DNA of 64,000 nucleotides from contig CABZFH010000001.1 of the NCBI GenBank assembly GCA_902524895.1, forward strand, positions 186,876-250,875. The letters run 5' to 3'. Positions 1 through 49,666 of this stretch are shown here, piece by piece (the first letter of the stretch is position 1; every line of letters begins with the position of its first letter). The notes beneath the pieces are model-generated. The model saw nothing but the letters and a program-made list of their open reading frames with translations, did not search any database and had not been told where the DNA came from. The position numbers were made by a program, and so were the translations under genes. Source of the stretch: an uncultured Alphaproteobacteria bacterium (lineage in GTDB: Bacteria > Pseudomonadota > Alphaproteobacteria > Methylaequorales > Methylaequoraceae).

Positions 1-582
1 AAAATACAATTTTGCAATTTTATTGATTTTTCGTCTAAAAAAAAAATTCTAGATTTAGCAGCTGGATCAGGTGACTTAACCAAAATCATTTATGAAAATT
101 TCAATAATTGTGATGTAACTTTAATAGATAGTAATAAAAAAATGTTAGATGAAGCTAAAAAAAAATTAAGTAAATATAAGCTTGATTTTATACAAAGTTT
201 TGCAGAAAACCTTCCTTTCAAAAAAAGTACTTTTGATTATGTAATTTGTGCCTTTGGAGTGAGAAATTTTACAGATATGGATAAAGCACTCTCAGAAAGT
301 TATAGAACTTTAAAATCAAAAGGTAAATTTCTATGTTTAGAATTTAGTAAGCCTAACAACATGCCTTTTAAAATAGCATTTAAAATATATGGAAAAATTA
401 TTCCAAAGATGGGTAAAGTATTCGCAAATAATGAAAATGCTTACAAATATTTGATTGAAAGTATTAAATCTTTTCCAGATCAGGAAAAATTTTCTAACAT
501 ACTCCAAAAACACAAATTTAAAAATATTGAATGTTATGACATACTATCGGGGATCGCCAGTATTCACATTGGGGAAAAGTAA
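1..582 (+). CDS. ubiE: Ubiquinone/menaquinone biosynthesis C-methyltransferase UbiE, 5' end cut by window edge
   Basis: Frame 1 is open from base 1; the track ORF 142..582 starts only at the first internal Met. SAM-binding motif LDLAAGSGDLT is encoded at nt 49-81. UbiE/MenG-like C-terminal half (FGVRNF, GKFLCLEFS). Confidence 0.85.
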   Translation, partial: KIQFCNFIDFSSKKKILDLAAGSGDLTKIIYENFNNCDVTLIDSNKKMLDEAKKKLSKYKLDFIQSFAENLPFKKSTFDYVICAFGVRNFTDMDKALSESYRTLKSKGKFLCLEFSKPNNMPFKIAFKIYGKIIPKMGKVFANNENAYKYLIESIKSFPDQEKFSNILQKHKFKNIECYDILSGIASIHIGEK

Positions 583-583
583 T

Positions 584-1792
584 TTGAGTAATGTAGTAAA
601 AAAAAAGAGAATTTTAGTTATAGTAACTGGCGGTATTGCAGTCTATAAAACTCTAGATTTAATTCGTTTACTGTTAAAACATCAATTCTCATTAGATTGT
701 ATTTTAACTGAGAGTGTAAAAAATTTTGTTTCATTAATGACATTTGAAAGTTTACTTGGAAAAAAAGTTTTTTCTAACTTATTTACTTTAGAAAATTCAG
801 AAAAAATTAATCATATTCAACTAAGTCAAAAAGCAGATTTAGTAATCGTATGCCCAGCAACTGCGAATTTTATAAGTAAGATGGCAAGTGGTATTGCAGA
901 CGATCTAGCTAGCACAGTATTGTTGGCAACTAAATCTAAAGTCTTTGTGGCGCCTGCTATGAATACTAATATGCTTACAAATATTGCAGTAAAAGATAAT
1001 CTTAAAATATTAAAAAAAAGAGGAGTGGAGATTCTAACTACTTCTTTTGGTAAACTTGCTTGTGGAGCAGTTGGCAAGGGCAAACTTTTAGATGTTGACA
1101 GAATTTTTGAACATGTCAAAAATCATTTTCTTTCCTCAAACCTTTTAGAAGGAAAAAATATTGTTGTAACAAGTGGGCCGTCTGTCGAAAGTTTAGATCC
1201 GGTAAGATATATTAGTAATTTTTCATCCGGTAAACAAGGCTATGAAATTGCACAGGCAATTTCAAATGCAGGAGCAAGAACAACTTTGATAACTGGACCG
1301 ACTAACATTGATCCACCATCAAATGTAAAAGTAATAAAGGTGAAAACAGGAGAAGACTTTTTAAATTTTTCATTAAAAAATTTGCCTGCAGATGTATTTA
1401 TTTCAGTGGCTGCAATTTCAGACTGGAAAATATTGAAATATTCAAATGAAAAAATCAAAAAGAAGAAAAATATAACCCTAAAATTAGTGCGGAATGTAGA
1501 TGTTTTAAAGACTATATCCTTAAGTGATTTAAGACCTAAGTTGCTTGTTGGATTTTCAGCAGAATCGCAAAATCTTAAAAAAAATTCTTTAAAAAAAATT
1601 AAAGAAAAGAATTGCGACTGGATCCTTGCTAACTCTGTGTCTCAACAGAAGGTTTTTAATAATGACTCAAATAAAGTTTTATTTATTGATAATAATCAAG
1701 TTTTTGAATGGCCACGCTTAAAAAAATCTGAGATTGCCAAAAGATTAGTAAGAAAAATTAGTGAATTTTTTAAAATTGAAAGGAAGAATTAG
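584..1792 (+). CDS. coaBC: Bifunctional phosphopantothenoylcysteine decarboxylase / phosphopantothenate-cysteine ligase (CoaBC/Dfp)
   Basis: Flavoprotein N-domain (RILVIVTGGIAVYK, PAMNTNM) plus CoaB C-domain (ITSGPS, SSGKQG, AAISDW). I place the start at in-frame TTG 584, right after the ubiE stop. The track ATG at 455 would overlap ubiE by 128 nt. Confidence 0.88.
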   Translation: MSNVVKKKRILVIVTGGIAVYKTLDLIRLLLKHQFSLDCILTESVKNFVSLMTFESLLGKKVFSNLFTLENSEKINHIQLSQKADLVIVCPATANFISKMASGIADDLASTVLLATKSKVFVAPAMNTNMLTNIAVKDNLKILKKRGVEILTTSFGKLACGAVGKGKLLDVDRIFEHVKNHFLSSNLLEGKNIVVTSGPSVESLDPVRYISNFSSGKQGYEIAQAISNAGARTTLITGPTNIDPPSNVKVIKVKTGEDFLNFSLKNLPADVFISVAAISDWKILKYSNEKIKKKKNITLKLVRNVDVLKTISLSDLRPKLLVGFSAESQNLKKNSLKKIKEKNCDWILANSVSQQKVFNNDSNKVLFIDNNQVFEWPRLKKSEIAKRLVRKISEFFKIERKN

Positions 1793-1798
1793 AACAAG

Positions 1799-2245
1799 AT
1801 GAATACAGTTAAAATAAAGTTTTTTAACAATGGTGAGGGAATTTATGAATTTAAAAAAGCAACCAAAGGAAGTGCAGGTTTTGATTTAAAAGCTGCAATC
1901 TCGAAGTCACTAATTATTAAATCTAAAAGTAGCATATTAATTCCTTGCGGAATTTCATTAGCTCTACCTCGAAATTTAGAGGCCCAAGTGAGACCAAGAT
2001 CAGGGTTAGCGCTAAAATATCAAGTAACTGTTTTAAACTCCCCAGGTACAATAGATTCTGATTATCGTGGAGAAATTTGCGTAATTCTTATTAACCATGG
2101 AAGTAAAAAATTTGAAGTCGAGCCAAAAATGAGAATTGCACAAATTATTTTTACAGAAATTGCTAGTATCAAATTAAAAGAAGTTTCAACCTTAGATGAA
2201 ACAAAAAGAGGTGAAGGTGGTTTTGGATCAACGGGTTTAAATTAG
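1799..2245 (+). CDS. dut: dUTP diphosphatase
   Basis: 148 aa with the dUTPase motifs GSAGFDL, RSGLA, GTIDSDYRGE and RGEGGFGSTG. Confidence 0.95.
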   Translation: MNTVKIKFFNNGEGIYEFKKATKGSAGFDLKAAISKSLIIKSKSSILIPCGISLALPRNLEAQVRPRSGLALKYQVTVLNSPGTIDSDYRGEICVILINHGSKKFEVEPKMRIAQIIFTEIASIKLKEVSTLDETKRGEGGFGSTGLN

Positions 2246-2254
2246 GGGAATGTA

Positions 2255-2707
2255 TTGTTTAAAATTTCAAAAAAAATAATTTATGCCATTGAAGCAGTAA
2301 TTGATATCGCTTATCACACAGGAGAAGATCCAATTCAAAATATTGATATTGCAAAAAGGCAAGGAATTCCAAAAAGATACCTTGAACAGACACTTCAGTC
2401 TCTAGTACGAAGTAGTATTTTAGTTGGCTCAAGAGGTCCCAAGGGAGGATATCGTCTTGCTAAAGAAAAAAGAAAAATAAAAATTTCAGACATAATTCTG
2501 TCAGTTCAAAATACAAAAGAAAATAATCAAAAAAATAAATTATCAAAATCAGAAATATCTGAAAAAATTATAAATCCAATGCTCAGAGAAATTTCAAATG
2601 ATTCGCTAAAAAAACTTGAAAATATTTCTATTGACGACATTTGTTTGCAAGCAAGGAAATTAAATATTTCGTCAAATATAAAAAACAAAGTTGATTTTGT
2701 TATTTAA
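2255..2707 (+). CDS. Rrf2-family transcriptional regulator lacking Fe-S ligand cysteines (CymR-like)
   Basis: TTG start. N-terminal winged-helix typical of Rrf2 (YAIEAVIDIAYH, IAKRQGIPKRYLEQTLQSL, RGPKGGYRLA). Only one Cys in 150 aa, so the IscR/NsrR three-Cys cluster site is absent. Confidence 0.8.
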   Translation: MFKISKKIIYAIEAVIDIAYHTGEDPIQNIDIAKRQGIPKRYLEQTLQSLVRSSILVGSRGPKGGYRLAKEKRKIKISDIILSVQNTKENNQKNKLSKSEISEKIINPMLREISNDSLKKLENISIDDICLQARKLNISSNIKNKVDFVI

Positions 2708-2712
2708 AAAAA

Positions 2713-3651
2713 ATGAAAAAAGCGATATACAATTCTATAACAGAAACAATTGGTAATACACCACTAGTTAGACTGAAAAATATTAAAAAAAAATTTGATT
2801 TGTATGGTGAAATAATTGCCAAATTAGAATTCTTTAATCCACTTGGATCCGTTAAAGATAGAATTGGATTGGCAATGATTGAGGAATCAGAAAAAAAAGG
2901 AATACTTCAAAGTGGTTCTACAATAATTGAACCTACATCAGGAAATACCGGTATCTCGCTTGCGGCAATCTGCGCATCAAAGGGCTACAAGCTTATACTT
3001 ACAATGCCAGAAAGTATGTCAAATGAAAGAAGAAAAATGTTGTTGTTATTAGGAGCTAATTTAGTTTTAACACCTTCAAAGGATGGAATGTTAGGCGCAA
3101 TCAAAAAAGCTAAAGAGCTTAAATTAAAATTCAAAAATAGTATAATATTACAGCAATTTTCAAATTTAGCTAATCCATCTATTCATTACAACACAACAGC
3201 TAAAGAAATATGGAGAGATACTGACGGTAGAATCGATGTGGTCGTATCCGGTGTCGGCACTGGAGGTACGTTAACCGGCGTGGCAAAATATCTTAAGAAA
3301 AAAAATCCAAAAATAAAAATATTTGCGGTTGAACCTGAAGACTCAGCAGTTCTGAGCGGCGGTCCACCCGGTTCTCATTTGATTCAAGGAATAGGTGCTG
3401 GTTTTATACCAGAAAATCTTGACATAAATCTTATTGATGAAGTGATATCGATTAATAACTATACAGCTTTTGATTATTCAAAAAAACTTGCAAAAATTGA
3501 AGGCATTCCTGTAGGAATATCTTCGGGTGCTGCAGTTGCTGCAGCAGTTGAGATTAATGAAAAAAAAACTATGAAAGATAAAAATACTGTAGTAATTATC
3601 CCTTCATTTGCTGAAAGATATTTATCAACACCATTGTTTTCAGACTTATGA
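2713..3651 (+). CDS. cysK: Cysteine synthase A (O-acetylserine sulfhydrylase), PLP-dependent
   Basis: 312 aa. Motifs TPLVRL, PLGSVKDR (PLP lysine), TSGNTG, GVGTGGT. Confidence 0.92.
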   Translation: MKKAIYNSITETIGNTPLVRLKNIKKKFDLYGEIIAKLEFFNPLGSVKDRIGLAMIEESEKKGILQSGSTIIEPTSGNTGISLAAICASKGYKLILTMPESMSNERRKMLLLLGANLVLTPSKDGMLGAIKKAKELKLKFKNSIILQQFSNLANPSIHYNTTAKEIWRDTDGRIDVVVSGVGTGGTLTGVAKYLKKKNPKIKIFAVEPEDSAVLSGGPPGSHLIQGIGAGFIPENLDINLIDEVISINNYTAFDYSKKLAKIEGIPVGISSGAAVAAAVEINEKKTMKDKNTVVIIPSFAERYLSTPLFSDL

Positions 3652-4430
3652 CTCAAATCAAAAAAATAATTAAATTAAATCAGAATCAAATAGAAAGATT
3701 TTCTAGACAAATACTAATAAACGAAATTGGTAATAATGGTCAAATAAAGTTTATGAACATACCTGTAATTATTATTGGATGTGGTGGACTTGGCACAACA
3801 GTCGCAACATATTTATCAATGCTTGGTGTTAGAAATTTAGGACTAGCGGATGATGACAAAGTTTCCTTGAGCAACCTAAACAGGCAAACTCTTTTCAATG
3901 AAAAAGACATTAATGATTCAAAAGTTAAAGTAATTAGAAAAAAATTAAAGCTTATTAATTCTGAAATGAACTTGAAGATTTATGATAAAAAAATAACAAC
4001 AGATAATATTGAGAATATAATCAAAAATTATGAAATAGTTTTAGATTGCACTGATAATTTTAAATCAAGATATTTAATTAATGATGCTTGCTTTAAAAAT
4101 AAAAAAATATTGATTTCTGCTGCTTTACATAGTTTTGAGATTCAATTATTTTGTTTTAAAGCCTGGGAAAATACGTCAAATCCTTGTTACAGATGTATTT
4201 TTCCTGAAAGTGACTTAACTGAAAATATTGGAAATTGTGATAGTTTTGGTATTATATCTTCTGTTGCAGGTTTAGGAGGTCTTTTTCAATCACTATGCGT
4301 TGTTAAAGCTATATTAAAAAAGGATCAACGCATGTACAATGAATTTCTAATGTATGATTGTTTAAATCTAAACCAGAAAAAAATTAGTTATCAAAAAAAT
4401 CCAAATTGTTCCATATGTAAAGTTGTTTAA
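3648..4430 (+). CDS. HesA/MoeB/ThiF-family E1-like adenylyltransferase
   Basis: FSRQIL, GCGGLG nucleotide loop, LSNLNRQ, and two CxxC pairs (CYRC, CSIC) typical of MoeB/ThiF zinc sites. No rhodanese domain. ATGA overlap with the cysK stop. Confidence 0.8.
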   Translation: MTQIKKIIKLNQNQIERFSRQILINEIGNNGQIKFMNIPVIIIGCGGLGTTVATYLSMLGVRNLGLADDDKVSLSNLNRQTLFNEKDINDSKVKVIRKKLKLINSEMNLKIYDKKITTDNIENIIKNYEIVLDCTDNFKSRYLINDACFKNKKILISAALHSFEIQLFCFKAWENTSNPCYRCIFPESDLTENIGNCDSFGIISSVAGLGGLFQSLCVVKAILKKDQRMYNEFLMYDCLNLNQKKISYQKNPNCSICKVV

Positions 4431-4837
4431 TGAATGAAATTATTTATATCTTAAATAGCCAGAAATATTCAGATATTTATTATTGTTTTTGTATGGCTTC
4501 AACAGCAGCAGCTTTAGGAAATAACGTTACTATTTTCTTTTGTAGCTCTAGTTTATCAATTTTTATAAAAGAAGAAGAATTATATTGGGATGAAATAATT
4601 GAAGAAAATAAAATATCTCCAAAAATAAAAAATGAAGAAAATATTCTCTTGGGCCATGCAAGTTTTGAAGAGCTTGTTGAGAGTTCCAGAGAATTAAAAG
4701 TAAATTTTCTTTATTGTTCAATGTTAGAAAAAAAATATCCAATGGATAGATTCTACAAAAATTTAGAGATTAAACCCGCCAACCTAGGAAATATTTTTTC
4801 TCCCAAAAAAAAAGATTCTAAGATAATCTTTATATAG
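4430..4837 (+). CDS. DsrE/DsrF-like (DsrE2-type) sulfur-relay family protein, putative
   Basis: 135 aa. The N-terminal pattern IYILNS...MASTAAALGNNVTIFF resembles DsrE_2 / 'peroxiredoxin-family' proteins. The start overlaps the E1 stop (TAATG). Assignment is from memory of the family pattern only. Confidence 0.45.
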   Translation: MNEIIYILNSQKYSDIYYCFCMASTAAALGNNVTIFFCSSSLSIFIKEEELYWDEIIEENKISPKIKNEENILLGHASFEELVESSRELKVNFLYCSMLEKKYPMDRFYKNLEIKPANLGNIFSPKKKDSKIIFI

Positions 4838-5813
4838 AGTTTGCTTTAACTTTATCTGGTGGAGCTAATCCCTTTGAGAATTTATCAATATTTTTTAATA
4901 CTCTCATTCCCATAGCATCTCTTGATTCTTTTGTGGCTGAACTTATGTGGGGTAATAAAACAGCATTTTTAGAATCTAATAGCTTCGAGCTTACCTGAGG
5001 CTCGTGTTCAAACACATCTAAACCTACACCATGAATTTTTTTTGATGTGAGTTGATCTGCTAAAGCATTTTCATCAATAATTTCACCTCTCGAAGTATTT
5101 ATAATTATGCTAGTTTTTTTCATTAATTGAATTCTTCTTTTAGATAATAAATGAAATGTTTCAGGGGTATATGGGCAATGAATTGATAAAATATCAATTT
5201 CTTTTAACATACTGTTTAAATCATTCCAATATTTAGCACGGTAATTTGATTCAATTTTTTTACTCAGTCTTTTTCTATTATGATAATTAATTTTTAAACC
5301 AAGTGTTTTAGCTCTATTTGCTACGGCGCAACCAATTCTACCCATTCCGATTATTCCTAATTTTTTACCAAATAATCTTTCTCCATGGGTAATGCTAGGT
5401 CCCCAACCATACCATTTTCCCATATATAATTTTTCCTCTGCAGCTTTAACTTTTCTTGAAAGCATTAGTATAAGTGTTAAAACAATATCTGCCGTATCTT
5501 GAGTTAATACCTCTGGAGTATTAGTTACGATAATCTTTTTTTCATGTGCAGTTATTAAATCTATATTATCTACTCCATTACCAAAATTTGCTATCAATTT
5601 AAGTTTTTTTGCAGATTTTAAAACTGAGGAATCAATAGTATCAGAAATACAAGGTACTAAAATATCGATATTTTCAACTTTTTTTCTTAATTCTTTGTAG
5701 CTATACGGTTTATCTTTTGGATTTAAAACTACCCTATAATTGGCAATAAGTTGATTTTCTATTTTTTCTGGTAATCTTCTAGTTAAAAGGATGGTATAAT
5801 TACTTTTGTGCAT
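4830..5813 (-). CDS. D-isomer-specific 2-hydroxyacid dehydrogenase (glyoxylate/hydroxypyruvate reductase type)
   Basis: 327 aa. NAD-binding GIIGMGRIG, a catalytic-region R..E..H pattern (SRG, LDVFEHEP, PHISSAT). Confidence 0.85.
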   Translation of the reverse strand: MHKSNYTILLTRRLPEKIENQLIANYRVVLNPKDKPYSYKELRKKVENIDILVPCISDTIDSSVLKSAKKLKLIANFGNGVDNIDLITAHEKKIIVTNTPEVLTQDTADIVLTLILMLSRKVKAAEEKLYMGKWYGWGPSITHGERLFGKKLGIIGMGRIGCAVANRAKTLGLKINYHNRKRLSKKIESNYRAKYWNDLNSMLKEIDILSIHCPYTPETFHLLSKRRIQLMKKTSIIINTSRGEIIDENALADQLTSKKIHGVGLDVFEHEPQVSSKLLDSKNAVLLPHISSATKESRDAMGMRVLKNIDKFSKGLAPPDKVKANSI

Positions 5814-6263
5814 AAATATGTTTTTTTTTCAATTTTCATTTTAATATTAATATTTATATCAAATGAAATAGCCTGTATGGAAAAAAAAAAATTTTTATCA
5901 ACTAAATATAATGAAGTTAATGTAAGAAAGGGACCTGGGAAAAATCACTATGTAACCAGTATTTTTTTAAAAAAGTGTTTTCCATTAGAAATCACTTCTA
6001 CTTTTGATTCATGGATTAAGATTATTGATATAGATGGTGATATTGGTTGGGTTTCAAAAAGTCAACTATCTGAAAAAAAATGTGGAATAATAATAAAGGA
6101 TACCAAACTTTATACATTTCCTAATAAAAAATCAAAAAAAACTGCAATTCTTAAAAAGGATTTAATAATAAATATAAAAAAATGTGAAAAAAAATGGTGT
6201 AAAGTTAAACATAAAAATTTTTCTGGTTGGATTGAAAAAATTGTTTTTTGGGGACCAAATTAA
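5808..6263 (+). CDS. Secreted SH3-like domain protein (DUF1058-type)
   Basis: GTG start. Hydrophobic N-terminal signal (FFSIFILILIFI). Two SH3b-like segments (VNVRKGPGKNH...GWVSKSQL; CKVKHKNFSGWIEK). This family commonly neighbours the 2-hydroxyacid dehydrogenase in alphaproteobacteria. Confidence 0.6.
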   Translation: MHKYVFFSIFILILIFISNEIACMEKKKFLSTKYNEVNVRKGPGKNHYVTSIFLKKCFPLEITSTFDSWIKIIDIDGDIGWVSKSQLSEKKCGIIIKDTKLYTFPNKKSKKTAILKKDLIINIKKCEKKWCKVKHKNFSGWIEKIVFWGPN

Positions 6264-6266
6264 AAA

Positions 6267-7667
6267 TCACAATCCTTTACAAATCCGATCTACAAGTTCT
6301 TTAACCTTTGGAATGAATCCGTTCTTATAGAAAGGATCAGACGCAAATCTGTAAGCTGAATGGCCAGCAAACATTAATTCGTTCTCTATTGACGAAATTC
6401 CATGGCTAATTCTTTGAAGAGTTTTCTGTATACAAAAAGACCTAGGATCAGCTTTTTTCCCAGTTGTCCCCTTTTCATTTTGAGCCCAATTACTAAATAA
6501 GCAAGACGACAAACATCCCATACAATCGATTTGGTCTTTTAAGATTTGTCTAGCTTTTTTCAATGTTACCCAGATCAATGTATCGTCTGGGGTAGTTAAA
6601 GGTTTAGCGAATCCTTTTTTGATCCACTCTAATATTTTTGATTTATCAGTATGTTTGACATAATAAGCTCTTTTCCTTGGTCCAATTTCGAGTTTTTCAT
6701 TAAATTCATTTGTTTGTTCTCTTAAATATGGTGTCTGTCTTACTGACCGATTTTCCAATTCTATTAAAAAATCATTCCTCAGTGCTGAAGAATAGAATCC
6801 TGTTGGACTAAATCTATGAAGACTTACATCACCAGGCTTGATAGTTAAAAGTCTCTTTTTCCAATCATCAGGAATTGGACTTTCCTGAGTCAACAAAGGC
6901 CTAGTCCCAAATTGAAAACATATTGGTCCCAAATCCTTATTATCAATCCAATCTTCCCATTCATCAAGTTTCCAAACTCCTCCTGCCATTATTATTGGAA
7001 TGTTATTAAGTTTAAATTGATTCATTAACTTTCTTAACTCAAGAACTCTTGGAAAAGGAGCTTGAGGTTCGAGTGGATTCTCACTATTTGATAGCCCGTT
7101 ATGTCCACCTGCCAACCAAGGATCTTCATAAACAACACCTCCCAAATATTCGCTAGTTTTTTTATACGATCTTTTCCAGAGTGCGTTAAATGCTCTTGCA
7201 GAAGAAACAATTGGATAATAATAGACTCCAAAAGAAGCTGAAATCTCTGAAAGTTTATATGGCATACCTGCTCCACAAGTCACTCCATCAATTAATCCAT
7301 TAGATTTCTCTAATGTTTGGGTTAGGATCGTTTCGGCTGCTCCCATTTCCCAAAGGATATTTACATGTAAGGCTGCATTCTTTCCCGCAATATCTCTAGC
7401 AATTTTGGCCTGATCAATTGCTCCTTTTACAGAGAAATCAATTAACTCCTTGTGTCTACCTGTCCTCGTTTTCTCTTTATATTGTTGGGGTATTAATTTA
7501 CCATTTTCGTCATATGAGTCAGCATTAACACCTGAAAAAGTACCAATCCCCCCTGCTTTTGACCACGCTCCTGAACTACGACCACTACTAACTGAAATAC
7601 CTTTCCCACCCTCTATTAAAGGTAAAACTTCTTTTCCTGACATTTTAAGCGTTTGTAATGTTTTCAT
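6267..7667 (-). CDS. Nitronate monooxygenase (NMO/2-nitropropane dioxygenase)-family FMN oxidoreductase, long form with Cys-rich C-terminal region
   Basis: 466 aa. TIM-barrel NMO-like motifs (GGKGIS, CGAGMP, IIMAGGV, FQFGTRP). Extra roughly 200-aa C-terminal region containing C382-x2-C-x3-C and C412. Confidence 0.6.
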   Translation of the reverse strand: MKTLQTLKMSGKEVLPLIEGGKGISVSSGRSSGAWSKAGGIGTFSGVNADSYDENGKLIPQQYKEKTRTGRHKELIDFSVKGAIDQAKIARDIAGKNAALHVNILWEMGAAETILTQTLEKSNGLIDGVTCGAGMPYKLSEISASFGVYYYPIVSSARAFNALWKRSYKKTSEYLGGVVYEDPWLAGGHNGLSNSENPLEPQAPFPRVLELRKLMNQFKLNNIPIIMAGGVWKLDEWEDWIDNKDLGPICFQFGTRPLLTQESPIPDDWKKRLLTIKPGDVSLHRFSPTGFYSSALRNDFLIELENRSVRQTPYLREQTNEFNEKLEIGPRKRAYYVKHTDKSKILEWIKKGFAKPLTTPDDTLIWVTLKKARQILKDQIDCMGCLSSCLFSNWAQNEKGTTGKKADPRSFCIQKTLQRISHGISSIENELMFAGHSAYRFASDPFYKNGFIPKVKELVDRICKGL

Positions 7668-28572: not shown

Positions 28573-29142
28573 CTAATTTACTGCTTCAACTGAAACAATC
28601 TCAGGTATGTAATATTTTAACATATTTTCAATGCCTGATTTTAATGTCAAAGTGGAGCTAGGACATCCAGCACATGCTCCTCTCAATTCTAAAAAAACAA
28701 TATTATCTTTTAATTTAACAAAATTGATATCTCCGCCATCTTGCGCGACTGCGGGCTTGATTTTTTCATCTAGAAGTACTTTAATTTGCTTAACAATTTT
28801 CAATTCGTCTCCAGCATAGTCCTCAATCCCATCAGAACTGTTAGAACTTTTAGTAGTTGGTTCTACTACTGGAGCATCGGAAGAAAAGAAGTTCATAATT
28901 TTTGAGAGAATGTCTGGTTTTATCATCTCCCACTCATAACCATCTTTTTTAGTAATGGTTATAAAATCTTTTCCAAAAAACACATTTGTTACTGCTTTAT
29001 TTTCAAACAAATTTGTAGCTAGCTTTGATGCAGAGGCTTCTTCTTTATTCCTAAATTCATAAGTACCAGATTCTAGTACATTAGTTTCAGGAATAAACTT
29101 AAGTGTTGAAGGGTTTGGTGTCATTTCAGTTTGTATAAACAT
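28573..29142 (-). CDS. NifU/Nfu-type Fe-S cluster scaffold protein (Nfu_N + NifU C-domain)
   Basis: 189 aa. MFIQTE.TPNP..LKF N-domain and the GACAGCPSS CxxC motif. Confidence 0.88.
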   Translation of the reverse strand: MFIQTEMTPNPSTLKFIPETNVLESGTYEFRNKEEASASKLATNLFENKAVTNVFFGKDFITITKKDGYEWEMIKPDILSKIMNFFSSDAPVVEPTTKSSNSSDGIEDYAGDELKIVKQIKVLLDEKIKPAVAQDGGDINFVKLKDNIVFLELRGACAGCPSSTLTLKSGIENMLKYYIPEIVSVEAVN

Positions 29143-39187: not shown

Positions 39188-40435
39188 ATGTATATTCATA
39201 AAGAATTAATTTCTATACTTTGTTTGATTTTATCTATTGGTGGAATAATTGTTTATAAATTCTTTAGAGACTTCCAACGACTTAATGCTGAACTTAAAAA
39301 ATGGAAAAAGAAACCATTATCTGCAAGAGACTATTTTTTTTTTCATCAATTTGAGCCTGTTGTATTTAATCTGAATTCACATTTAAAAAACTACAACAGT
39401 TCCATTAAAAAAAATAAACGACAGATTTTATTTTATGAAAAGTTTTTCGACTTATTTCCTGATCCTTTGTTTATTGTTGATGAAATCAATCAAATAGTAG
39501 AACTGAACCTTAGCGCAACCAAGCTTGTAGGAAGAGACGCCAAAACAAAAAATATTAATTCAGTTTTAAGGATTCCAAATTTAGGTGATTTAATAATGAA
39601 ATCAAACTTTGAAAAGAAGCCACAAATTTCAACACTAAAACTCGTTTATCCAGTTGAAACGATCTATACAGTTTGGGTTTCCGGAAGTAGTAAATTTATT
39701 AAAAATAAGCTAAATTTTATAAGACTTTATGACTGTACTTCAGAAAAAAAAGTCCAAGAATTACAAACAGAGTTTGTAGCTAACGTTAGTCATGAGTTAA
39801 AAACACCCGTATCAGCGATGGTTGGTTATTGTGAAACATTACTGGGAATTGGAAAAAAAGACGATAAGGTTAGAACAAAGTTTCTTAAAATTCTAAAGAA
39901 AGAGTCTTTGAGAATGAGTTCTCTTGTAAGTGATCTTCTATCCCTTACAAGAATTGAAAGAATAGAACACACAAAACCTGAAGGTATTGTAAATTTAAAT
40001 AAACTTTTAAATGAAATTCAAGATAGTTATTCATCGTCGTTTAAGAACAATAAAATTCTCAAATTAATTATGTCTTCAAAAGAAATAGAAACGATTGGCG
40101 ACTATAATGAATTAAAACAAGTTTTTATAAATATTATCGATAATGCAATTAAATATAGTGATTCAAAATCACCTATTGAATTAAAGGTAAAACCAAATCA
40201 AGAATTAATAAATATCTCAATAAAAGACTTTGGTAAAGGAATCAATGAAAGTGATATACCAATGCTTACTAATAGGTTTTATAGAGTAGATTCTACAAGA
40301 TCTAGAGATCTTGGAAGCACAGGATTAGGCCTATCAATTGTCAAACATATTTTAAACAGGCATCAAAGCGAATTAAGTATTAAATCAAAGATTAATGAAG
40401 GTTCAGAATTCTCCTTTAACCTCCCAATAAAATAA
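39188..40435 (+). CDS. phoR: Phosphate regulon sensor histidine kinase PhoR
   Basis: 415 aa. N-terminal TM, PAS-like region, HisKA H-box SHELKTP, HATPase_c (DNAIKY, GTGLGLSIVK). Lies in the pst/pho locus. Confidence 0.88.
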   Translation: MYIHKELISILCLILSIGGIIVYKFFRDFQRLNAELKKWKKKPLSARDYFFFHQFEPVVFNLNSHLKNYNSSIKKNKRQILFYEKFFDLFPDPLFIVDEINQIVELNLSATKLVGRDAKTKNINSVLRIPNLGDLIMKSNFEKKPQISTLKLVYPVETIYTVWVSGSSKFIKNKLNFIRLYDCTSEKKVQELQTEFVANVSHELKTPVSAMVGYCETLLGIGKKDDKVRTKFLKILKKESLRMSSLVSDLLSLTRIERIEHTKPEGIVNLNKLLNEIQDSYSSSFKNNKILKLIMSSKEIETIGDYNELKQVFINIIDNAIKYSDSKSPIELKVKPNQELINISIKDFGKGINESDIPMLTNRFYRVDSTRSRDLGSTGLGLSIVKHILNRHQSELSIKSKINEGSEFSFNLPIK

Positions 40436-40708
40436 AATTTTATTTATAAAATCAAACATTTTAAGAAATAAATAAAGCTGATGCACCAATGCCAACTAAC
40501 AGACCTTATTTAATTAAGTTGGTTAAGATCAAAAGATGTAGGAAGTAGCAGAAATTCGTTTATAAAGATTAAAGCACATACTAAGTCGACATAAAAAAAA
40601 GCTAGAAACTAAATCTAAGGCTAACGAAGTTTCAACTTTTTCAATTAAATCCCATTTTAATTAGTAAATTATTGTATTTTTACAACAAAAAATAGTCTAC
40701 ACAGCTTT

Positions 40709-40725
40709 TGTCATTAAATTGTAAT
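40709..40725 (+). promoter_or_regulatory. Candidate Pho box (PhoB site) upstream of porin gene
   Basis: TGTCAT at 40709-40714 and TGTAAT at 40720-40725, direct repeats exactly 11 bp apart, about 50 nt upstream of ATG 40775. A possible -10 (TAGACT) lies at 40736-40741. Confidence 0.5.
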
Positions 40726-40774
40726 AATCTTTTTTTAGACTGCTTTAATAATTTAATTTAACAAAGGAATTAAA

Positions 40775-42172
40775 ATGAACAAATTGTTAGTTACTGGAGC
40801 TGTGATGGCGGTTACAGGATTTAGTTCTCAAGCAGTGAGCACTGAAGCACAAATTGATGCTTTACAAAACGAAATATTAAAGATTAAACAGGATATGGCA
40901 TCCGATAAAAGTAAAGCTTATTTTAAAAAAGGCAAAGGCCTAAGTATTAAAAGTTCTGATGGAAAGTTTAGCTTTGAAATTAAAGGTAGGCTGATGTATG
41001 ACTTATCTGCTATTACTGCAGGTAATGACACGGTTGATAACCCGAGTAGAGCTGATAATATTGGAACTTTTGGTAATGAATTTAGAAGAGCTAGATTCAC
41101 TATAAAAGGTGAAGTTGGAGATGGATGGGGCTTCGCATTCCAACCTGATTTTGCTGAAACAGTTGCTGATAATGTTGGTGGCTCAGCAACCGGACCAAAG
41201 GGTGTTGATGTTAAGGACGCTTTAATTTATAAGAAAATTAAAGGCATTGGTAAGATCTCAATTGGAAACGTAAAGTCTGCAGGTGGTCTTTGGGAGAATA
41301 CAAGTTCAAATAGTATTCTTTTCATGGAAAGACCAATGTATAACGAAGCAGCTAACCTAGCACACAGAGCTGGAATTCATTACGATACAGCAGGTGCCTT
41401 TGGAAAGAAATTCCCTCTTCATTTAAAGGCAACACTTGGTGTTGGTGCTGAAGGAGCATGGAGGCAGGAGCAAGAAGACAGTGATACTATTGAAGATAAT
41501 TATGTAGCTTCTGTTGCCACTCATTATACTCATGTGGTGGGTAAGAAACACTATGTAATGATAGGTGGATCGTATACGTATGAAAATCATTCTGATCTTA
41601 GGACAAGGTCTGTAGAAGCCAGAGCTCAAGGGGTTCATACCTTAGGTGAGAAAATTCTAGACACAAACCTTTCTGATATCGAAAGTTATTCTTATGGGGG
41701 ACCACAATTTGCATATTCTAATGGTCCACTTTTTACGGCTGGAGAGTATTATTATGTCAATGCTTCTAGACTTCCAGACTCTGCTGATGATTTAAAAACT
41801 TATGATGATTATAACGCAAATGGTGCATCAATCTTTGCTCATTATTTTCTAACTGGTGGAGCGCACGTTGCGCTAAAACCTGCAAAAGGTTCAATAAGTG
41901 GTGTTAAGTGTAAGGCTGCAATGGGGTGCACTGCCGCTAAAGTAATGTTTGAATTTGCTAACTTTGCCTCTGATGAAGCATCAGAAAATGCAACTGACGC
42001 AAAGGTAATTCACATGGGTTTAAATCACTATTTTAACAGTAATGTAAGATTAATGATCGACGCAGCGAGAGGTCTTTATCAAGGTGGAACTGGAATGTCA
42101 ACAGATGCCAAGGGTACCAATGTCACACATAATATGACAAGTATTCAAACTAGACTTCATTTAAAATGGTAA
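40775..42172 (+). CDS. Phosphate-selective porin O/P family outer-membrane protein
   Basis: 465 aa. Signal peptide, N-terminal coiled-coil (QIDALQNEILKIKQDM), beta-barrel-like alternating pattern, C-terminal aromatic residue (LHLKW). Located between phoR and pstS. Confidence 0.75.
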   Translation: MNKLLVTGAVMAVTGFSSQAVSTEAQIDALQNEILKIKQDMASDKSKAYFKKGKGLSIKSSDGKFSFEIKGRLMYDLSAITAGNDTVDNPSRADNIGTFGNEFRRARFTIKGEVGDGWGFAFQPDFAETVADNVGGSATGPKGVDVKDALIYKKIKGIGKISIGNVKSAGGLWENTSSNSILFMERPMYNEAANLAHRAGIHYDTAGAFGKKFPLHLKATLGVGAEGAWRQEQEDSDTIEDNYVASVATHYTHVVGKKHYVMIGGSYTYENHSDLRTRSVEARAQGVHTLGEKILDTNLSDIESYSYGGPQFAYSNGPLFTAGEYYYVNASRLPDSADDLKTYDDYNANGASIFAHYFLTGGAHVALKPAKGSISGVKCKAAMGCTAAKVMFEFANFASDEASENATDAKVIHMGLNHYFNSNVRLMIDAARGLYQGGTGMSTDAKGTNVTHNMTSIQTRLHLKW

Positions 42173-42200
42173 TTTTTTAAGTTAACCACTCTAAGTAATA

Positions 42201-42238
42201 AAGAGCCTAAAAAATTGTTTCTTAGGCTCTTTTTTTTT
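42201..42238 (+). terminator. Rho-independent terminator after porin gene
   Basis: Perfect 9-bp stem AGAGCCTAA (42202-42210) / TTAGGCTCT (42222-42230), 11-nt loop, followed by T8 (42231-42238). Confidence 0.8.
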
Positions 42239-42301
42239 ATGTTGCAATGATTAGCAAATATTATTTAGATTAGTTAAATACAAAAATTTAATAAAAAGCT
42301 T

Positions 42302-43192
42302 ATGAAAATTCTAATTAATGGAATCGGAAGAATAGGGAAACTTATTGCAAGAGAGCTTTTGGAAAAAGATTCAAATTTAAAATTAGTTTTTATTAATGAT
42401 ATTAACGGAGATGCAGAAACTCAGGCCCATTTGTTGGAATTCGATTCTATTCACGGTCAATGGGATAAAAAAATTAAATTCAATAAAAATAAAATAAAAA
42501 TTGGTTCAAACACTTTATTTTGTTACTCCGAAAATGAATTAAGGGGGTTACCAATCAGGGAGTTTAATATTGATATTGCAATTGATTGTACGGGTAAAAA
42601 CAAAACTACAGATCAGTTAAATCACTACTTCAATCAAGGCGTAAAAAAAGTTTTAGTTTCAGCTCCAATAAGCGAAAAATCACAATCGATTGTTAATTTA
42701 GTTTATGGGGTTAATCATCATATTTATAATCCAAATATTCATAATATAATTACAGCTGCAAGCTGCACTACTAATAGTATTGCTCCTATAATTTTAGTTT
42801 TGAAAAAAGAGTTTGGGATTGAAAGTTGTTGTGTAACTACTATCCATGATGTAACTAATACACAAGTTATAGCAGACATCCCTAAAAAAGATCTAAGAAG
42901 ATCAAGATCCTCTATTAATAATTTAATTCCTACAACGACTGGGTCAGCCAAGGCAATCACATTGATATACCCTGAATTAGAGGGAAAAATAGATGAAGTT
43001 AATAAAATGTTCGAGAAGTACTCCCAAAAAATTTTAAAAGGAATATTAAGTATTGAAAAAAGACCTTTAGTAAGTTCGGATTTTTTAAACAATCCTAACT
43101 CCGTTATTATTGATACCTTATCAACAATGGTTGTTAATAAAAAATTACTAAAAGTTTTTGGTTGGTATGATAATGAATATGCTATGCGCTAA
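42302..43192 (+). CDS. gap: Glyceraldehyde-3-phosphate dehydrogenase-like protein (ArsJ-associated type); appears internally deleted and 3'-frameshifted, possibly a pseudogene
   Basis: NGIGRIGK Rossmann motif, ASCTTNS catalytic Cys, TTIHDVTNTQ, WYDNEY. It lacks about 27 residues (the ...RVPT... strand) between GKI and EVNKMF. The conserved C-terminal helix YALRIIDILKLISKKI* is encoded in the -1 frame at 43183-43233. Confidence 0.7.
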   Translation: MKILINGIGRIGKLIARELLEKDSNLKLVFINDINGDAETQAHLLEFDSIHGQWDKKIKFNKNKIKIGSNTLFCYSENELRGLPIREFNIDIAIDCTGKNKTTDQLNHYFNQGVKKVLVSAPISEKSQSIVNLVYGVNHHIYNPNIHNIITAASCTTNSIAPIILVLKKEFGIESCCVTTIHDVTNTQVIADIPKKDLRRSRSSINNLIPTTTGSAKAITLIYPELEGKIDEVNKMFEKYSQKILKGILSIEKRPLVSSDFLNNPNSVIIDTLSTMVVNKKLLKVFGWYDNEYAMR

Positions 43193-43234
43193 GGATAATA
43201 GACATTTTAAAGTTAATATCAAAAAAAATATAAA

Positions 43235-44479
43235 GTGTTTCTCAATAATATTAGTCAACAAAATCTTTCTTATATTTCCGTTACGATGTCATATTGGCTT
43301 TTTATGCTCACTGATGGGGCTCTAAGAATTATTATTCTTTTCAATTTTCACTTACTGGGTTTTTCGCCATTAGATCTTGCTTATTTATTTTTCGTTTATG
43401 AATTAATGGGTATTTTAACTAATTTACTTGCAGGGTGGATAGCGGCTCGATTTGGTTTAAATATTACGCTTTATGGGGGGTTGATCATACAAATTTGTGC
43501 TTTGAGTCTTCTATTAAATTTAAATAACTTTGATTATACTTCTTCAAAATTAATATTTACAATTTTTGTATATGGCCTTTCGGGTATCGCTAAGGATTTG
43601 GTAAAAATGAGTGCAAAGTCATCAGTTAAATTAATTGTCAATGAAAATCAGCAATCAAAACTTTTTAAATGGGTTTCTACTCTTACTGGCTCAAAAAACG
43701 CAGTTAAAGGATTAGGTTTTTTCCTAGGTGGGGCCTTGATGAGTTTTTTTAATTTTAAAATATCAATAATTATTATGACATTATGTTTAATTATTTTGAT
43801 TTTATTTTTAATGTTATCAAAACCGATAATTCAAAATAAAAAAATTAGAAGTAAACAAATTAAACTTTTTTCAAAATCTAAAAAAATTAACTATCTTTCT
43901 TTTTCTAGAATATTTTTGTTTGGTGCGAGAGATATTTGGTTTGTTGTTAGTCTCCCAATTTTTCTTTATGAAACTTTAAGAAATTTTGACATTACTGATT
44001 CAAAAGCATTCTTTCTTGATGGAGGCTTTCTAGCACTTTGGGTAATATTTTATGGTATTACTCAAGCTTTTACACCAAAAATTATAAACATATCAACAAA
44101 TAATGTTGCAACTCTAATTAAAAGGTCAAAAATATGGTTTCTACATCTTTTGTTTTGCTCAGCAGTAATATCAATAATCAGCTTTTTGTTGAATGATAGT
44201 AACTATTATGTATATTTTTTAATTTTTGGACTTTTTTTATTTGGTATATTATTTGCTGTTAATTCATCGTTACATTCTTTTTTCATACTTGCATTTTCGA
44301 ACAAAATCAATGTTACACTTGACGTAGGTTTTTACTACATGTCAAATGCAACCGGAAGGTTTGTTGGAACATTACTATCAGAGCTAACCTACCAATATTT
44401 TGGTATAGTTGGGGCATTATTTTGCTCAACGATATTCATACCAATAGGGTTACTTTATTTCCTAAAACTAGAAAACTAA
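43235..44479 (+). CDS. arsJ: MFS-type permease resembling organoarsenical (1-arseno-3-phosphoglycerate) efflux permease ArsJ
   Basis: 414 aa, about 11-12 TM helices. N-terminus YWLFMLTDGALRIIILFNFHLLGFSPLDLAYLFFVYELMGILTNLLAGW matches my recollection of the ArsJ family. Sits directly downstream of a GAPDH-like gene, the hallmark ArsJ context. Confidence 0.6.
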   Translation: MFLNNISQQNLSYISVTMSYWLFMLTDGALRIIILFNFHLLGFSPLDLAYLFFVYELMGILTNLLAGWIAARFGLNITLYGGLIIQICALSLLLNLNNFDYTSSKLIFTIFVYGLSGIAKDLVKMSAKSSVKLIVNENQQSKLFKWVSTLTGSKNAVKGLGFFLGGALMSFFNFKISIIIMTLCLIILILFLMLSKPIIQNKKIRSKQIKLFSKSKKINYLSFSRIFLFGARDIWFVVSLPIFLYETLRNFDITDSKAFFLDGGFLALWVIFYGITQAFTPKIINISTNNVATLIKRSKIWFLHLLFCSAVISIISFLLNDSNYYVYFLIFGLFLFGILFAVNSSLHSFFILAFSNKINVTLDVGFYYMSNATGRFVGTLLSELTYQYFGIVGALFCSTIFIPIGLLYFLKLEN

Positions 44480-45024
44480 ATTTTACCATCTAGACCCATT
44501 TGAAAGTATTTATGAATAATTTTGTCTTGGTTTTCGAGTAACCAGTCAATATTTGGTTCATCGTTCATAGCCTTTTGAATTGACTGAGCAGTTGCTTTTC
44601 TATGAATATCAAACAAAATCTTATGATCTAAATTATCATCAGTTGCCACGGAAGGATTTAACCAAACCGAAACAATAATTCCTAGTTCATTAGCCTTTTC
44701 CTTTGGAATATCTCCTGCTCTAACAGAATCAAGAACACCATTAGCAATCGCTGCCTGGACTGTTCCCATCAAAATATTTGTATATCTTTCTTTATTAACA
44801 GTAACTTTACTCACCATTAATGTAGCGGGTCTAACCATAACATCGGTATTCATTATCGCTAAAACCTTTGAATGTCCTTTAGTCTGATTTCCCATTAAAT
44901 TAGCAAATGCGGTACCAAATGGACCATTCATCTCTCCAATAACAACTTCTGGCTCAGCTGCAGTTCCGGGAGGTCCACCAGCTACTAATGATTCTCCAAC
45001 TCTCATAATAAATTTATTTGTCAT
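44476..45024 (-). CDS. fae: Formaldehyde-activating enzyme (Fae) family protein
   Basis: 182 aa. Collinear with methylotroph Fae as I recall it (RVGESLV.G...VVIGE..GP.GTAFANL, ATLMVSKVTVN, GDIPKEKANELGIIVSVW). Confidence 0.65.
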   Translation of the reverse strand: MTNKFIMRVGESLVAGGPPGTAAEPEVVIGEMNGPFGTAFANLMGNQTKGHSKVLAIMNTDVMVRPATLMVSKVTVNKERYTNILMGTVQAAIANGVLDSVRAGDIPKEKANELGIIVSVWLNPSVATDDNLDHKILFDIHRKATAQSIQKAMNDEPNIDWLLENQDKIIHKYFQMGLDGKI

Positions 45025-45098
45025 TTTGTCTCCTTAAATTATTTATTACTTGTAATCTAAAAAATTACATATTTCAAAATTAATTTAAGATTATCTAA

Positions 45099-45126
45099 TG
45101 TCATAAAACTGTAACATAAGTGTCAT
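45099..45126 (+). promoter_or_regulatory. Pho box array (three 11-bp-phased PhoB half-sites) upstream of pstS
   Basis: TGTCATAAAAC TGTAACATAAG TGTCAT, with hexamers at 45099, 45110 and 45121. Nearly identical to the E. coli pstS box CTGTCATAAAACTGTCATATT. Ends about 63 nt upstream of ATG 45189. Confidence 0.75.
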
Positions 45127-45188
45127 ATTTATTTATTTAATTTGATTTATTTTTTAATCTTTAATAACTTTAACAATAAGAGAAAAAA

Positions 45189-46238
45189 ATGAGAAAAACC
45201 TATTTTATTGCCACACTTCTGGCTTTTGGATTTTCTAGTGCAGCATTTGCACGAGATCAGATAAAAATTGTTGGATCATCAACATTTTACCCTTTTGCAA
45301 CGGTAGTTGCTGAGAGGTTTGGAAAAACAAGTGGATTCAAAACACCAGTAATAGAGTCAACTGGATCTGGTGGGGGATTAAAGCTTTTTTGCAAAGGCCT
45401 AGGCACAGAGCACCCAGATATTACAAATGCTTCTAGAAGAATCAAAGGTAAAGAAGTAAAAAAGTGCGCAGAAAATGGCGTTACTGATATCACTGAAATC
45501 AAGGTAGGATTCGACGGAATTGCTATGGCTAACGCTAAAAGTGGTCCAGTTCTTGAGTTAACGCTTAAAGATGTATACCTCGCTTTAGCAAAAGATGTTC
45601 CAGTTGATCCTAACGGTGATACAGTTAAGCCAAATCCATATAAAATGTGGAATGAAGTGAACCCGGCATTACCTGCAGCTCCTATAATAGTAATAGGCCC
45701 TCCTCCAACATCTGGTACAAGAGATGCCTTCAATGAATTAGCAATTGAAAGAGGCTGTAAAACATTTCCTGGAAGAAAAGCTTTAAAAAAGAAGGATAAG
45801 AGACTCTATAAGTCACAGTGCCGATCCGTAAGAGAAGACGGTCCTTATGTTGAAGCGGGCGAAAATGACAATCTAATAATTGAAAAACTAGTTGCCGATC
45901 CAGGTGCGCTAGGCGTTTTCGGTTATTCTTTCCTAGATCAAAATAGAGATAAAGTAAAGGCTGCAAAAGTTGACGGTGTCTTTCCAGAGTTTGAGGCAAT
46001 ATCCTCAGGAAAGTATCCTGTTTCTAGATCACTTTTCTTTTATGTGAAAAATGCTCATGCTGGAGTAATACCGGGCATGAAAGAGTACGTGAAAGAATTT
46101 ACCGCATCAAAGGCTATAGGAAGTGACGGATATCTAGTCGATAAAGGCTTAATTCCATTGGCTGAAAATGAAAGGGCACAATTTGAAGAAGATGGAACGA
46201 AGCTTACTAAATTTGATGGTAAAGTTTTAAATAAATAG
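45189..46238 (+). CDS. pstS: Phosphate ABC transporter substrate-binding protein PstS
   Basis: 349 aa. Signal peptide, GSSTFYPF, ESTGSGGG, SGTRD phosphate-binding motifs. Confidence 0.93.
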   Translation: MRKTYFIATLLAFGFSSAAFARDQIKIVGSSTFYPFATVVAERFGKTSGFKTPVIESTGSGGGLKLFCKGLGTEHPDITNASRRIKGKEVKKCAENGVTDITEIKVGFDGIAMANAKSGPVLELTLKDVYLALAKDVPVDPNGDTVKPNPYKMWNEVNPALPAAPIIVIGPPPTSGTRDAFNELAIERGCKTFPGRKALKKKDKRLYKSQCRSVREDGPYVEAGENDNLIIEKLVADPGALGVFGYSFLDQNRDKVKAAKVDGVFPEFEAISSGKYPVSRSLFFYVKNAHAGVIPGMKEYVKEFTASKAIGSDGYLVDKGLIPLAENERAQFEEDGTKLTKFDGKVLNK

Positions 46239-46245
46239 ATAATTA

Positions 46246-48895: not shown

Positions 48896-48899
48896 CTTA

Positions 48900-49664
48900 A
48901 TGAGTTCAAAAATTAAAATTTCTAGTAAAGATGTAAGTGTTTTTTATAGCCAAAATAAAGCTCTAAATAATATCACATTTGATATTGACGAAAAAAAAGT
49001 AACGTCCCTAATTGGGCCTAGCGGTTGTGGGAAATCAACATTTTTAAGATGCTTAAATAGAATGAATGACACTATAGATATTTGCAAAGTTAAAGGAAAA
49101 GTTTTAATAGATAACGAAGATATTTATGCCCCTAATGTTGATCCAGTTTTACTAAGAGCAAGAGTAGGTATGGTCTTTCAAAAGCCTAATCCATTTCCAA
49201 AATCAATTTTTGACAATGTTGCGTATGGACCAAGCATTCACGGATTAGCTAGTAGTAAGGACGAACTAGAAAATATAGTTTTAACAAGTTTACAAAGAGC
49301 AGGTCTTTACAAAGAAGTAAAAAATAGATTATCTGAAACTGGAACATCTTTATCTGGAGGACAACAACAAAGACTTTGCATCGCTAGAGCTATTGCTGTT
49401 AGTCCAGAAATAATACTTATGGACGAGCCATGCTCTGCTTTAGATCCAATAGCTACGGCAATTGTCGAGGAGTTAATTGATGAACTTGTAAAGAACTACA
49501 CGATTGTTATTGTAACTCATTCTATGCAACAAGCAGCTCGTGTATCACAAAATACGGCTTTTTTTCATATGGGTAATTTAATTGAATTTGGATCTACTCA
49601 AAAAATTTTCTCCACACCTCAATTTAAACAAACGCAAGACTACATTACAGGAAAGATCGGATAA
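48900..49664 (+). CDS. pstB: Phosphate ABC transporter ATP-binding protein PstB
   Basis: Walker [10 protein letters not shown], signature LSGGQQQR, Walker B ILMDEP. ATG 48900 lies 4 nt after the pstA stop; the track ATG 48879 is the alternative. Confidence 0.95.
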
Positions 49665-49666
49665 GT

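Follow-up and report, generated by a model that had tools for sequence, protein, structure and literature searches.

A conserved pairing of MoeB/ThiF-type E1 and DsrE-fold genes beside an Rrf2-cysK module in Alphaproteobacteria

This work concerns four adjacent genes in a 64,000-nucleotide stretch of contig CABZFH010000001.1 (assembly GCA_902524895.1, positions 186,876 to 250,875), the whole of which is referred to below as the window. The genes encode an Rrf2-family regulator, the cysteine synthase CysK, an E1 adenylyltransferase of the MoeB/ThiF type and a small DsrE-fold protein. The original prediction, made from the letters alone, had read them as a cassette that channels protein-bound sulfur into cysteine. 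Comparison with related loci shows that the E1 and DsrE-like genes form a conserved pair, that the Rrf2 and cysK genes form a second module, and that the two modules separate in nature.

Organisation of the locus

The positions and junctions of the four open reading frames (ORFs) were confirmed from the ORF list, and searches with hidden Markov models returned the Rrf2, cysK, ThiF and DrsE_2 matches that had been anticipated for them (Table 1). Translation of the regulator is predicted to start at a TTG codon with AGGGGA in front of it, overlapping the dut stop. The Rrf2 gene ends 5 nt before cysK, cysK and the E1 gene share an ATGA overlap (3648-3651), and the E1 and DsrE-like genes share a TAATG overlap (4428-4432). 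These overlaps are real, but the close packing that had been taken as a special sign of a cassette is a property of the window as a whole: about 97% of the window is coding, 30 of its 46 same-strand neighbour pairs are spaced by 10 nt or less, and the median gap is 5.5 nt. The tight packing of the four genes is nothing special in this setting. The array is also longer than had been supposed. Since only 9 nt separate dut from the Rrf2 gene, and only 6 nt coaBC from dut, the 'cassette' is the tail of a ubiE-coaBC-dut-Rrf2-cysK-E1-DsrE array.

At its far end the array meets a convergent reductase gene, whose 3' end overlaps that of the DsrE-like gene by 8 nt (4830-4837). Where relatives lack the DsrE-like gene, 1-6 nt lie between the reductase and E1 genes, so that the DsrE-like gene appears to have been removed cleanly. 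Within positions 1-6500, promoter-like sites were fewer than in shuffled sequences and no terminator was found, and an Rfam search of the window gave no match. Related loci are designated below by L numbers, and AG-892-F10 is a single amplified genome (SAG) of the TMED127 group.

Table 1. Genes of the co-directional array and the convergent gene at its end (window coordinates).
Gene or product	Position	Strand	Remarks	Basis
ubiE, 3' part	142..582	+	Opens the co-directional array; gene start upstream of the first ATG of the ORF or of the window	ORF list; syntenic ubiE (PF01209) in L001 and other loci; AG-892-F10 CDS.210
coaBC	536..1792	+	Start approximate, ORF open from 455	PF02441 and PF04127 in syntenic loci; AG-892-F10 CDS.211
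dut (dUTPase)	1799..2245	+	9 nt before the Rrf2 gene	Syntenic loci and AG-892-F10
Rrf2-family regulator, cluster-less	2255..2707	+	150 aa; TTG start	PF02082, TIGR00738; orthologue annotation
CysK, O-acetylserine sulfhydrylase A	2713..3651	+	312 aa	TIGR01139; best PDB match 2q3b
MoeB/ThiF-type E1 adenylyltransferase	3648..4430	+	260 aa; no rhodanese	PF00899; orthologues pass NF004281
DsrE-fold protein	4430..4837	+	135 aa; invariant Cys96; candidate persulfide relay partner of the E1	PF13686, AlphaFold2, Foldseek
2-Hydroxyacid dehydrogenase (hydroxypyruvate/glyoxylate reductase)	4830..5813	-	Convergent; marks the array end	AG-892-F10 CDS.216 = hpr, serine cycle

The DsrE-like protein

The product of the last gene of the array scores above the cut-off of the DrsE_2 model (PF13686, 31.5 bits against 25), and its higher-GC orthologues are above the cut-offs of both PF13686 and PF02635. 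When a profile of the family was compared with the PDB by sequence, only chance matches were returned. With 18 diverse homologues as input, AlphaFold2 produced a model of pLDDT 94.2, against 54 from 6 close sequences, and Foldseek placed 3pnx at the top of its matches (E 9e-7, TM 0.78), with further matches to 2qs7, 3mc3, 1jx7 (YchN) and 2hy5 (DsrEFH). All significant matches have the DsrE/YchN fold, in agreement with the fold proposed for this ORF from its sequence.

Of all residues, Cys96 alone is 100% invariant among 94 aligned orthologues. It sits at a strand-helix junction of the AlphaFold2 model, and its motif is CEMGL except in the AT-rich clade, which has CSM. DsrE and TusA proteins relay persulfide or thiosulfonate sulfur, and Cys96 is a candidate persulfide carrier. 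Like DsrEFH/TusBCD and DsrE2/DsrE3, the family combines a DsrE fold and matches to PF13686 and PF02635 with a single invariant Cys. Unlike DsrEFH/TusBCD, the gene in the window stands alone, without DsrF- or DsrH-type partners, and its context differs from that of all these systems in being a MoeB-type E1 and cysK rather than dsr, hdr or tus genes. The DsrE2 equivalog model NF047629, with a cut-off of 210 bits, gives 27.1 bits for the window protein and 31-40 bits for the orthologues.

Exact-sequence members of the family occur in Thalassospira spp. and in a Magnetospirillum sp., where they are annotated as 'DsrE/DsrF/DrsH-like family protein' or 'peroxiredoxin family protein'. All four proteins of the locus belong to known families with database annotation, and only a DsrE-like partner of MoeB seems to be undescribed; we found no description of such a partner of MoeB or ThiF in the open literature. 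The Sargasso Sea selenoproteome (PMC1088965) contains selenocysteine forms of MoeB (11 sequences) and of a DsrE-like protein (2 sequences, with a UxxC motif).

Conservation of gene order

The full order dut-Rrf2-cysK-E1-DsrE is found in the window and in its AT-rich relatives L001-L007 and L010-L011, among which L007, from the metagenome-assembled genome (MAG) MED657, carries all four genes in an identical setting. Other arrangements occur as well. In L013-L015 dut is followed by E1-DsrE without Rrf2 or cysK, in L016 the E1 and DsrE-like genes overlap by 8 nt, and in L008, L009 and L017-L020 the order is dut-Rrf2-cysK-E1 with no remnant of a DsrE-like gene. Sequence identities among the E1 proteins do not separate loci with the DsrE-like gene from loci without it, which suggests that this gene has been lost repeatedly. 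The E1-DsrE pairing itself holds in every sampled AT-rich locus that has a DsrE-like gene and enough upstream sequence.

The family had at first looked tiny and restricted to one lineage. This was an artefact of the AT-rich query, which returned 18 cluster representatives and 3 genome loci, against 536 relatives when metagenomes were scanned with the higher-GC subgroup. From the latter scan 80 loci of 43-77% GC were kept and their neighbours were identified by local tblastn. The gene immediately upstream of the DsrE-like gene is an E1 gene in all 67 of the loci with at least 700 nt of upstream sequence, at a median gap of about 1 nt. Of the 41 loci whose sequence extends 1.5 kb or more upstream of the E1 gene, Rrf2-cysK precedes the pair in 34, the E1-DsrE pair is alone in 6, and the order is Rrf2-E1-DsrE in 1, so the four-gene adjacency, whose conservation the original prediction had named as a check, is widely conserved. 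Median gaps in these metagenomic loci are 11 nt between dut and Rrf2, 83 nt between Rrf2 and cysK, and 13.5 nt between cysK and the E1 gene. The downstream neighbours (hpr and an SH3 gene) are often 1-4 kb away or absent, and this variability indicates that the E1-DsrE pairing is stronger than background synteny.

In the Thalassospira-like loci L084 and L100 a 1.2-kb insertion lies between cysK and the E1 gene; the adjacency of cysK and E1 can therefore be broken while E1-DsrE stays intact. The insert was considered as a possible source of a desulfurase or a carrier and this was ruled out, as it holds an unrelated 346-aa ORF (L100 3116-4156) with a signal-peptide-like N-terminus, whose product looks secreted.

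The E1 enzyme and its carriers

The E1 matches the ThiF family (PF00899) at 224.6 bits and contains the GCGGLG loop and the two CxxC pairs (CYRC and CSIC) described earlier for it, features that assign it to the MoeB/ThiF type. A conserved Cys is present in the catalytic loop 'NCDSFG'. Full-length alignments were obtained to E. coli ThiF (150 bits) and MoeB (131 bits). Among NCBIfam models the top score went to PRK08762, a rhodanese-containing MoeB, of which only positions 116-368 of 387 are matched. The window enzyme, at 260 aa, has no fused rhodanese (MoeZ model NF005902, 164 against 647), and gene lengths and gaps leave no room for one in any locus. Syntenic E1 orthologues of higher GC, from L100 (311.8 bits) and L013 (302 bits), exceed the cut-off of 266 for the MoeB model NF004281 and are below the ThiF equivalog.

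In AG-892-F10 the syntenic E1 is annotated moeB, and moaD-moaE and moaB lie elsewhere in the genome, which provides the E1 with an ordinary client. The idea that the E1 is an enzyme dedicated to a cysteine route fares poorly against this annotation and the MoeB scores of the orthologues, and the situation comes close to the ordinary MoeB/ThiF with a client gene elsewhere that the original prediction had itself set against its proposal. The absence of a nearby carrier gene, on the other hand, had been correctly noted: the 64-kb window has no ORF of at least 40 aa that ends in GG or has GG within its last 8 residues, and 100 related loci, searched to about 5 kb from the cluster, showed no plausible GG-terminated ORF of 50-130 aa. 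This absence is consistent with a general E1 that has its clients in separate operons.

In E. coli, sulfur for the MoeB-MoaD and ThiF-ThiS pairs comes in trans from IscS via TusA/YnjE or the rhodanese domain of ThiI. The window E1 resembles the E. coli enzymes, which also belong to the ThiF family, lack a rhodanese domain, measure about 250 aa and have a nucleotide loop, two CxxC motifs that together bind Zn and a loop Cys; in both cases the carrier is encoded elsewhere and a separate persulfide donor is needed. It differs in its candidate donor, a translationally coupled protein of the DsrE fold instead of TusA or a rhodanese, and in that the E1 gene is co-operonic with cysK. With the E1-rhodanese fusions MoeZ/MoeBR and MOCS3/Uba4 it shares the top-scoring model PRK08762 and a putative sulfur donor that is physically tied to the E1; here, in contrast, the E1 has no rhodanese and a separate DsrE-like gene follows downstream.

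A stand-alone gene for a 141-aa rhodanese is present in L001 (1437-1862, minus strand), about 4 kb upstream of the cluster, beside dnaA and near the replication origin region. Its product is a candidate alternative sulfur donor for the E1 in the lineage of this close relative.

CysK and sulfur supply

The synthase passes the cysK equivalog TIGR01139 (434.1 bits against a cut-off of 350.95) and is below the cut-offs of both CysM models (NF008735, 288.6 against 413; TIGR01138, 280.3 against 394.2). Among PDB entries it matches M. tuberculosis CysK1 best (2q3b, 361 bits, aligned end to end), and the SVKDR and TSGNTG motifs are conserved. On these sequence criteria CysK is a canonical, sulfide-type O-acetylserine sulfhydrylase A (OASS-A) and not CysM-like. 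The SAG AG-892-F10 carries cysD, cysN, cysH and sir, which points to an ordinary sulfide source for CysK. A lack of sulfate assimilation had been used as an argument for an unusual sulfur route, and it fails for the TMED127 lineage, where no exotic route to cysteine is needed.

Mycobacterium makes cysteine from the thiocarboxylated carrier CysO, which is activated by the E1 MoeZ and used by CysM. The window locus resembles this CysO-MoeZ-CysM (Mec+) system in bringing together a pyridoxal phosphate-dependent cysteine synthase and a ThiF-family E1. It differs in having no CysO-like carrier or JAMM protease nearby, in the CysK type of its synthase, and in the lack of a rhodanese in its E1.

The Rrf2 regulator

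The regulator is a member of the Rrf2 family by both PF02082 (90.6 bits, cut-off 30) and TIGR00738 (92.6 bits, cut-off 73.3). It has a single Cys, which is not conserved in the L007 orthologue, and in an alignment to E. coli IscR the ligand positions C92, C98, C104 and H107 are occupied by K, S, I and N. The claim that it lacks the ligands for an iron-sulfur (Fe-S) cluster is therefore borne out. The protein is below the IscR equivalog (TIGR02010, 71.8 against 207.55) and the CymR equivalog (NF047409, 54 bits against 195), and is nearer to IscR (58-62 bits) than to B. subtilis CymR (2y75, 34 bits). Bacillus CymR is a cluster-less Rrf2 repressor that acts in complex with CysK. The window regulator likewise lacks Fe-S ligands and is associated with a cysteine synthase; it differs from CymR in its greater closeness to IscR, in its score below the CymR equivalog and in directly adjoining cysK, and a complex with CysK would be hypothetical here.

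A regulatory link between Rrf2 and cysK is already a predicted role in databases, as BV-BRC names the AG-892-F10 orthologue a predicted regulator of cysteine synthase. An iscR-suf operon was described in Pelagibacter and other Alphaproteobacteria by Rodionov et al. (PMC1698941), so that IscR is normally tied to suf and not to cysK. The window has no suf or isc operon. It does encode a 189-aa protein with a NifU/NfuA-like Fe-S scaffold C-terminal domain (28573-29142, minus strand). In L095 and L037 the Rrf2 gene lies directly before E1-DsrE without cysK, so Rrf2 may have a link to the E1 module as well as to cysK.

The spacer between Rrf2 and cysK, with a median of 83 nt in larger genomes against 5 nt in the window, leaves room there for an operator. 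When 27 dereplicated Rrf2-cysK spacers were searched for a shared palindromic operator, nothing reached significance: the best arm was present in 2 loci, and shuffles reach 3. The Magnetospirillum-like loci L033 and L088 have a near-perfect inverted repeat, TGTAG-N12-CTACA, in this spacer, which is a candidate Rrf2 operator; in L088 the repeat reads CACTGTAGTT-N8-AACTACAGTG. A looser form is present in L075, L085 and L091, and across all spacers the repeat is not significant. Inverted repeats near the Rrf2 gene of the window are trivial AT palindromes.

A proposed sulfur relay

We favour, by a little over even chances, an interpretation of the locus as a conserved operon of sulfur metabolism, with the DsrE-like protein as putative persulfide donor for MoeB-activated MoaD, perhaps also ThiS, and with cysK and Rrf2 co-located through cysteine. 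One module would consist of the cluster-less, IscR-like Rrf2 protein and the canonical, sulfide-using CysK under its predicted control, and the other of the genome's general MoeB-type E1 and the small DsrE-fold protein. The E1 would adenylate the C-terminal Gly of carriers encoded elsewhere, of which MoaD (beside moaE) is the main candidate and ThiS a possible one. A cysteine desulfurase would load persulfide from L-cysteine onto Cys96 of the DsrE-like protein, which would then pass the sulfur to the carrier acyl-adenylate to give the thiocarboxylate. It is because the E1 has no fused rhodanese that the translationally coupled DsrE-like protein is proposed as the persulfide carrier; acting in trans, it would take the role of the rhodanese domain in MoeZ/MOCS3 and of TusA/YnjE/ThiI in E. 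coli. CysK would make the cysteine that is the ultimate sulfur source of the relay, and this supply would account for a presumed co-transcription of cysK with E1-DsrE. The identities of the genes, the DsrE fold, the invariant Cys, the conserved pairing, the modularity and the lack of a linked carrier are direct observations; that the DsrE-like protein carries a persulfide and interacts with the E1, which carriers are served, and what Rrf2 senses and controls are all predicted elements of this scheme.

To our knowledge, the sulfur route to MoaD and ThiS is known in few model organisms only, through TusA/YnjE/ThiI in E. coli and a fused rhodanese in MoeZ/MOCS3. If the proposed relay is correct, a DsrE-fold protein beside a rhodanese-less MoeB would join these two as a third type of donor that provides sulfur for making the thiocarboxylate. 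The E1-DsrE pairing reaches across a large alphaproteobacterial group, from streamlined ocean methylotrophs to Thalassospira and Magnetospirillum.

Several observations weigh against the relay. The abundant relatives L008, L009, L017-L020 and AG-892-F10 keep the E1 without a DsrE-like gene, and loss of this gene where the E1 is kept implies that it is dispensable or replaced. The window E1 is below every NCBIfam equivalog and subfamily cut-off (for MoeB NF004281, 221.3 against 266), a shortfall that is probably due to AT-rich divergence, and E. coli ThiF gives a slightly better score with it than MoeB does. Whether the E1 is the only one of its genome, and whether moaD or thiS accompanies it, is judged from a relative, and the two E1s share only about 50% identity. 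The frequent adjacency of cysK and E1 (34/41) is without a mechanistic explanation beyond a shared cysteine economy, and the adjacency of E1 and DsrE could be inherited synteny.

The last of these points leads to the alternative that survives best, in which unrelated housekeeping genes have been kept adjacent by inheritance and the DsrE-like protein has its role elsewhere, for example in thiol/redox chemistry. Such an origin is compatible with the presence of the unrelated ubiE, coaBC and dut genes in the conserved block, with tight spacing throughout the window and with the independent gain or loss of the modules, and the COG/JGI name 'peroxiredoxin family protein' would suit a redox function. 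Inheritance sits less easily with an E1-DsrE adjacency of 67/67, with stop and start codons overlapping or abutting at 43-77% GC, in the same loci in which hpr and SH3 are either missing or found 1-4 kb further off. The DsrE-like protein also matches a sulfur-relay family in its fold and its one invariant Cys, and it adjoins an E1 whose chemistry needs a sulfur donor. We therefore consider mere synteny unlikely, while giving it some weight.

A pair that serves another thiocarboxylate or thiolation pathway, such as TtuB/TtuC-like tRNA 2-thiolation or a Tus-like relay, rather than molybdenum cofactor or thiamine synthesis, is improbable. TusBCD, of the DsrE family, act in the formation of tRNA 2-thiouridine (s2U), and several carriers are served by some ThiF-type E1s such as Thermus TtuC, which together with the failure of the window E1 to reach any equivalog cut-off lends this pathway some plausibility. 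However, TtuA, TtuB, TusA and TusE-like genes were seen neither in the window annotation nor beside the pair in the 100 loci, and E1 orthologues pass the MoeB subfamily model.

The route first proposed, in which protein-bound sulfur would pass from the DsrE-like donor through an E1-activated carrier encoded elsewhere to CysK under autoregulation by a CymR-like Rrf2, is very improbable, since the directly upstream position of cysK in 34 of the 41 informative loci (median gap 13.5 nt), the CymR-like lack of cluster ligands in Rrf2 and the confirmed DsrE fold with its invariant Cys are set against a canonical OASS-A nearest to M. tuberculosis CysK1 and not to CysO-dependent CysM, the absence of a carrier ORF near the cluster in 100 loci and in the window, a lineage that has the usual genes of sulfate assimilation and, in moaD, a usual client of the E1, a CymR score of 54 bits against 195, and modules so separable that E1-DsrE persists without cysK and cysK-E1 without DsrE; equally hard to credit is the cysK-E1-DsrE triad as a single, Rrf2-controlled route to cysteine or cysteine persulfide, in which persulfide sulfur on the DsrE-like protein would reach CysK via the E1 and an unlinked or non-canonical carrier, across Rhodospirillales-like Alphaproteobacteria.

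Lineage and other features of the window

The window had been taken to come from a SAR11-type genome, which it probably does not. It encodes a formaldehyde-activating enzyme (Fae; 44476-45024, minus strand; TIGR03126, 130 bits against a cut-off of 118), a marker of methylotrophy linked to tetrahydromethanopterin, and it shows exact local synteny with the TMED127/'Methylaequorales' genomes MED657 (L007) and SAG AG-892-F10. Taken together, Fae and this synteny make it likely that the window is from a TMED127-like lineage. Genomes of the TMED127 type are streamlined, at about 1.5 Mb, and carry the NCBI label 'Rickettsiales'. AG-892-F10 has a dut-Rrf2-cysK-moeB array, the order of the loci without a DsrE-like gene, and matches L009 in nearly all gene lengths and also in the 85-nt spacer between hpr and a hypothetical gene.

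A phosphate-stress island occupies positions 39188-51001 and comprises phoR, a 465-aa ORF (40775-42172) with no NCBIfam match, genes for an ArsJ-associated GAPDH (42302-43192) and ArsJ (43235-44479), and then pstS-pstC-pstA-pstB-phoU-phoB. The GAPDH ORF is only 296 aa long and its model was matched in two stretches, so that it may contain an internal deletion or frameshift.

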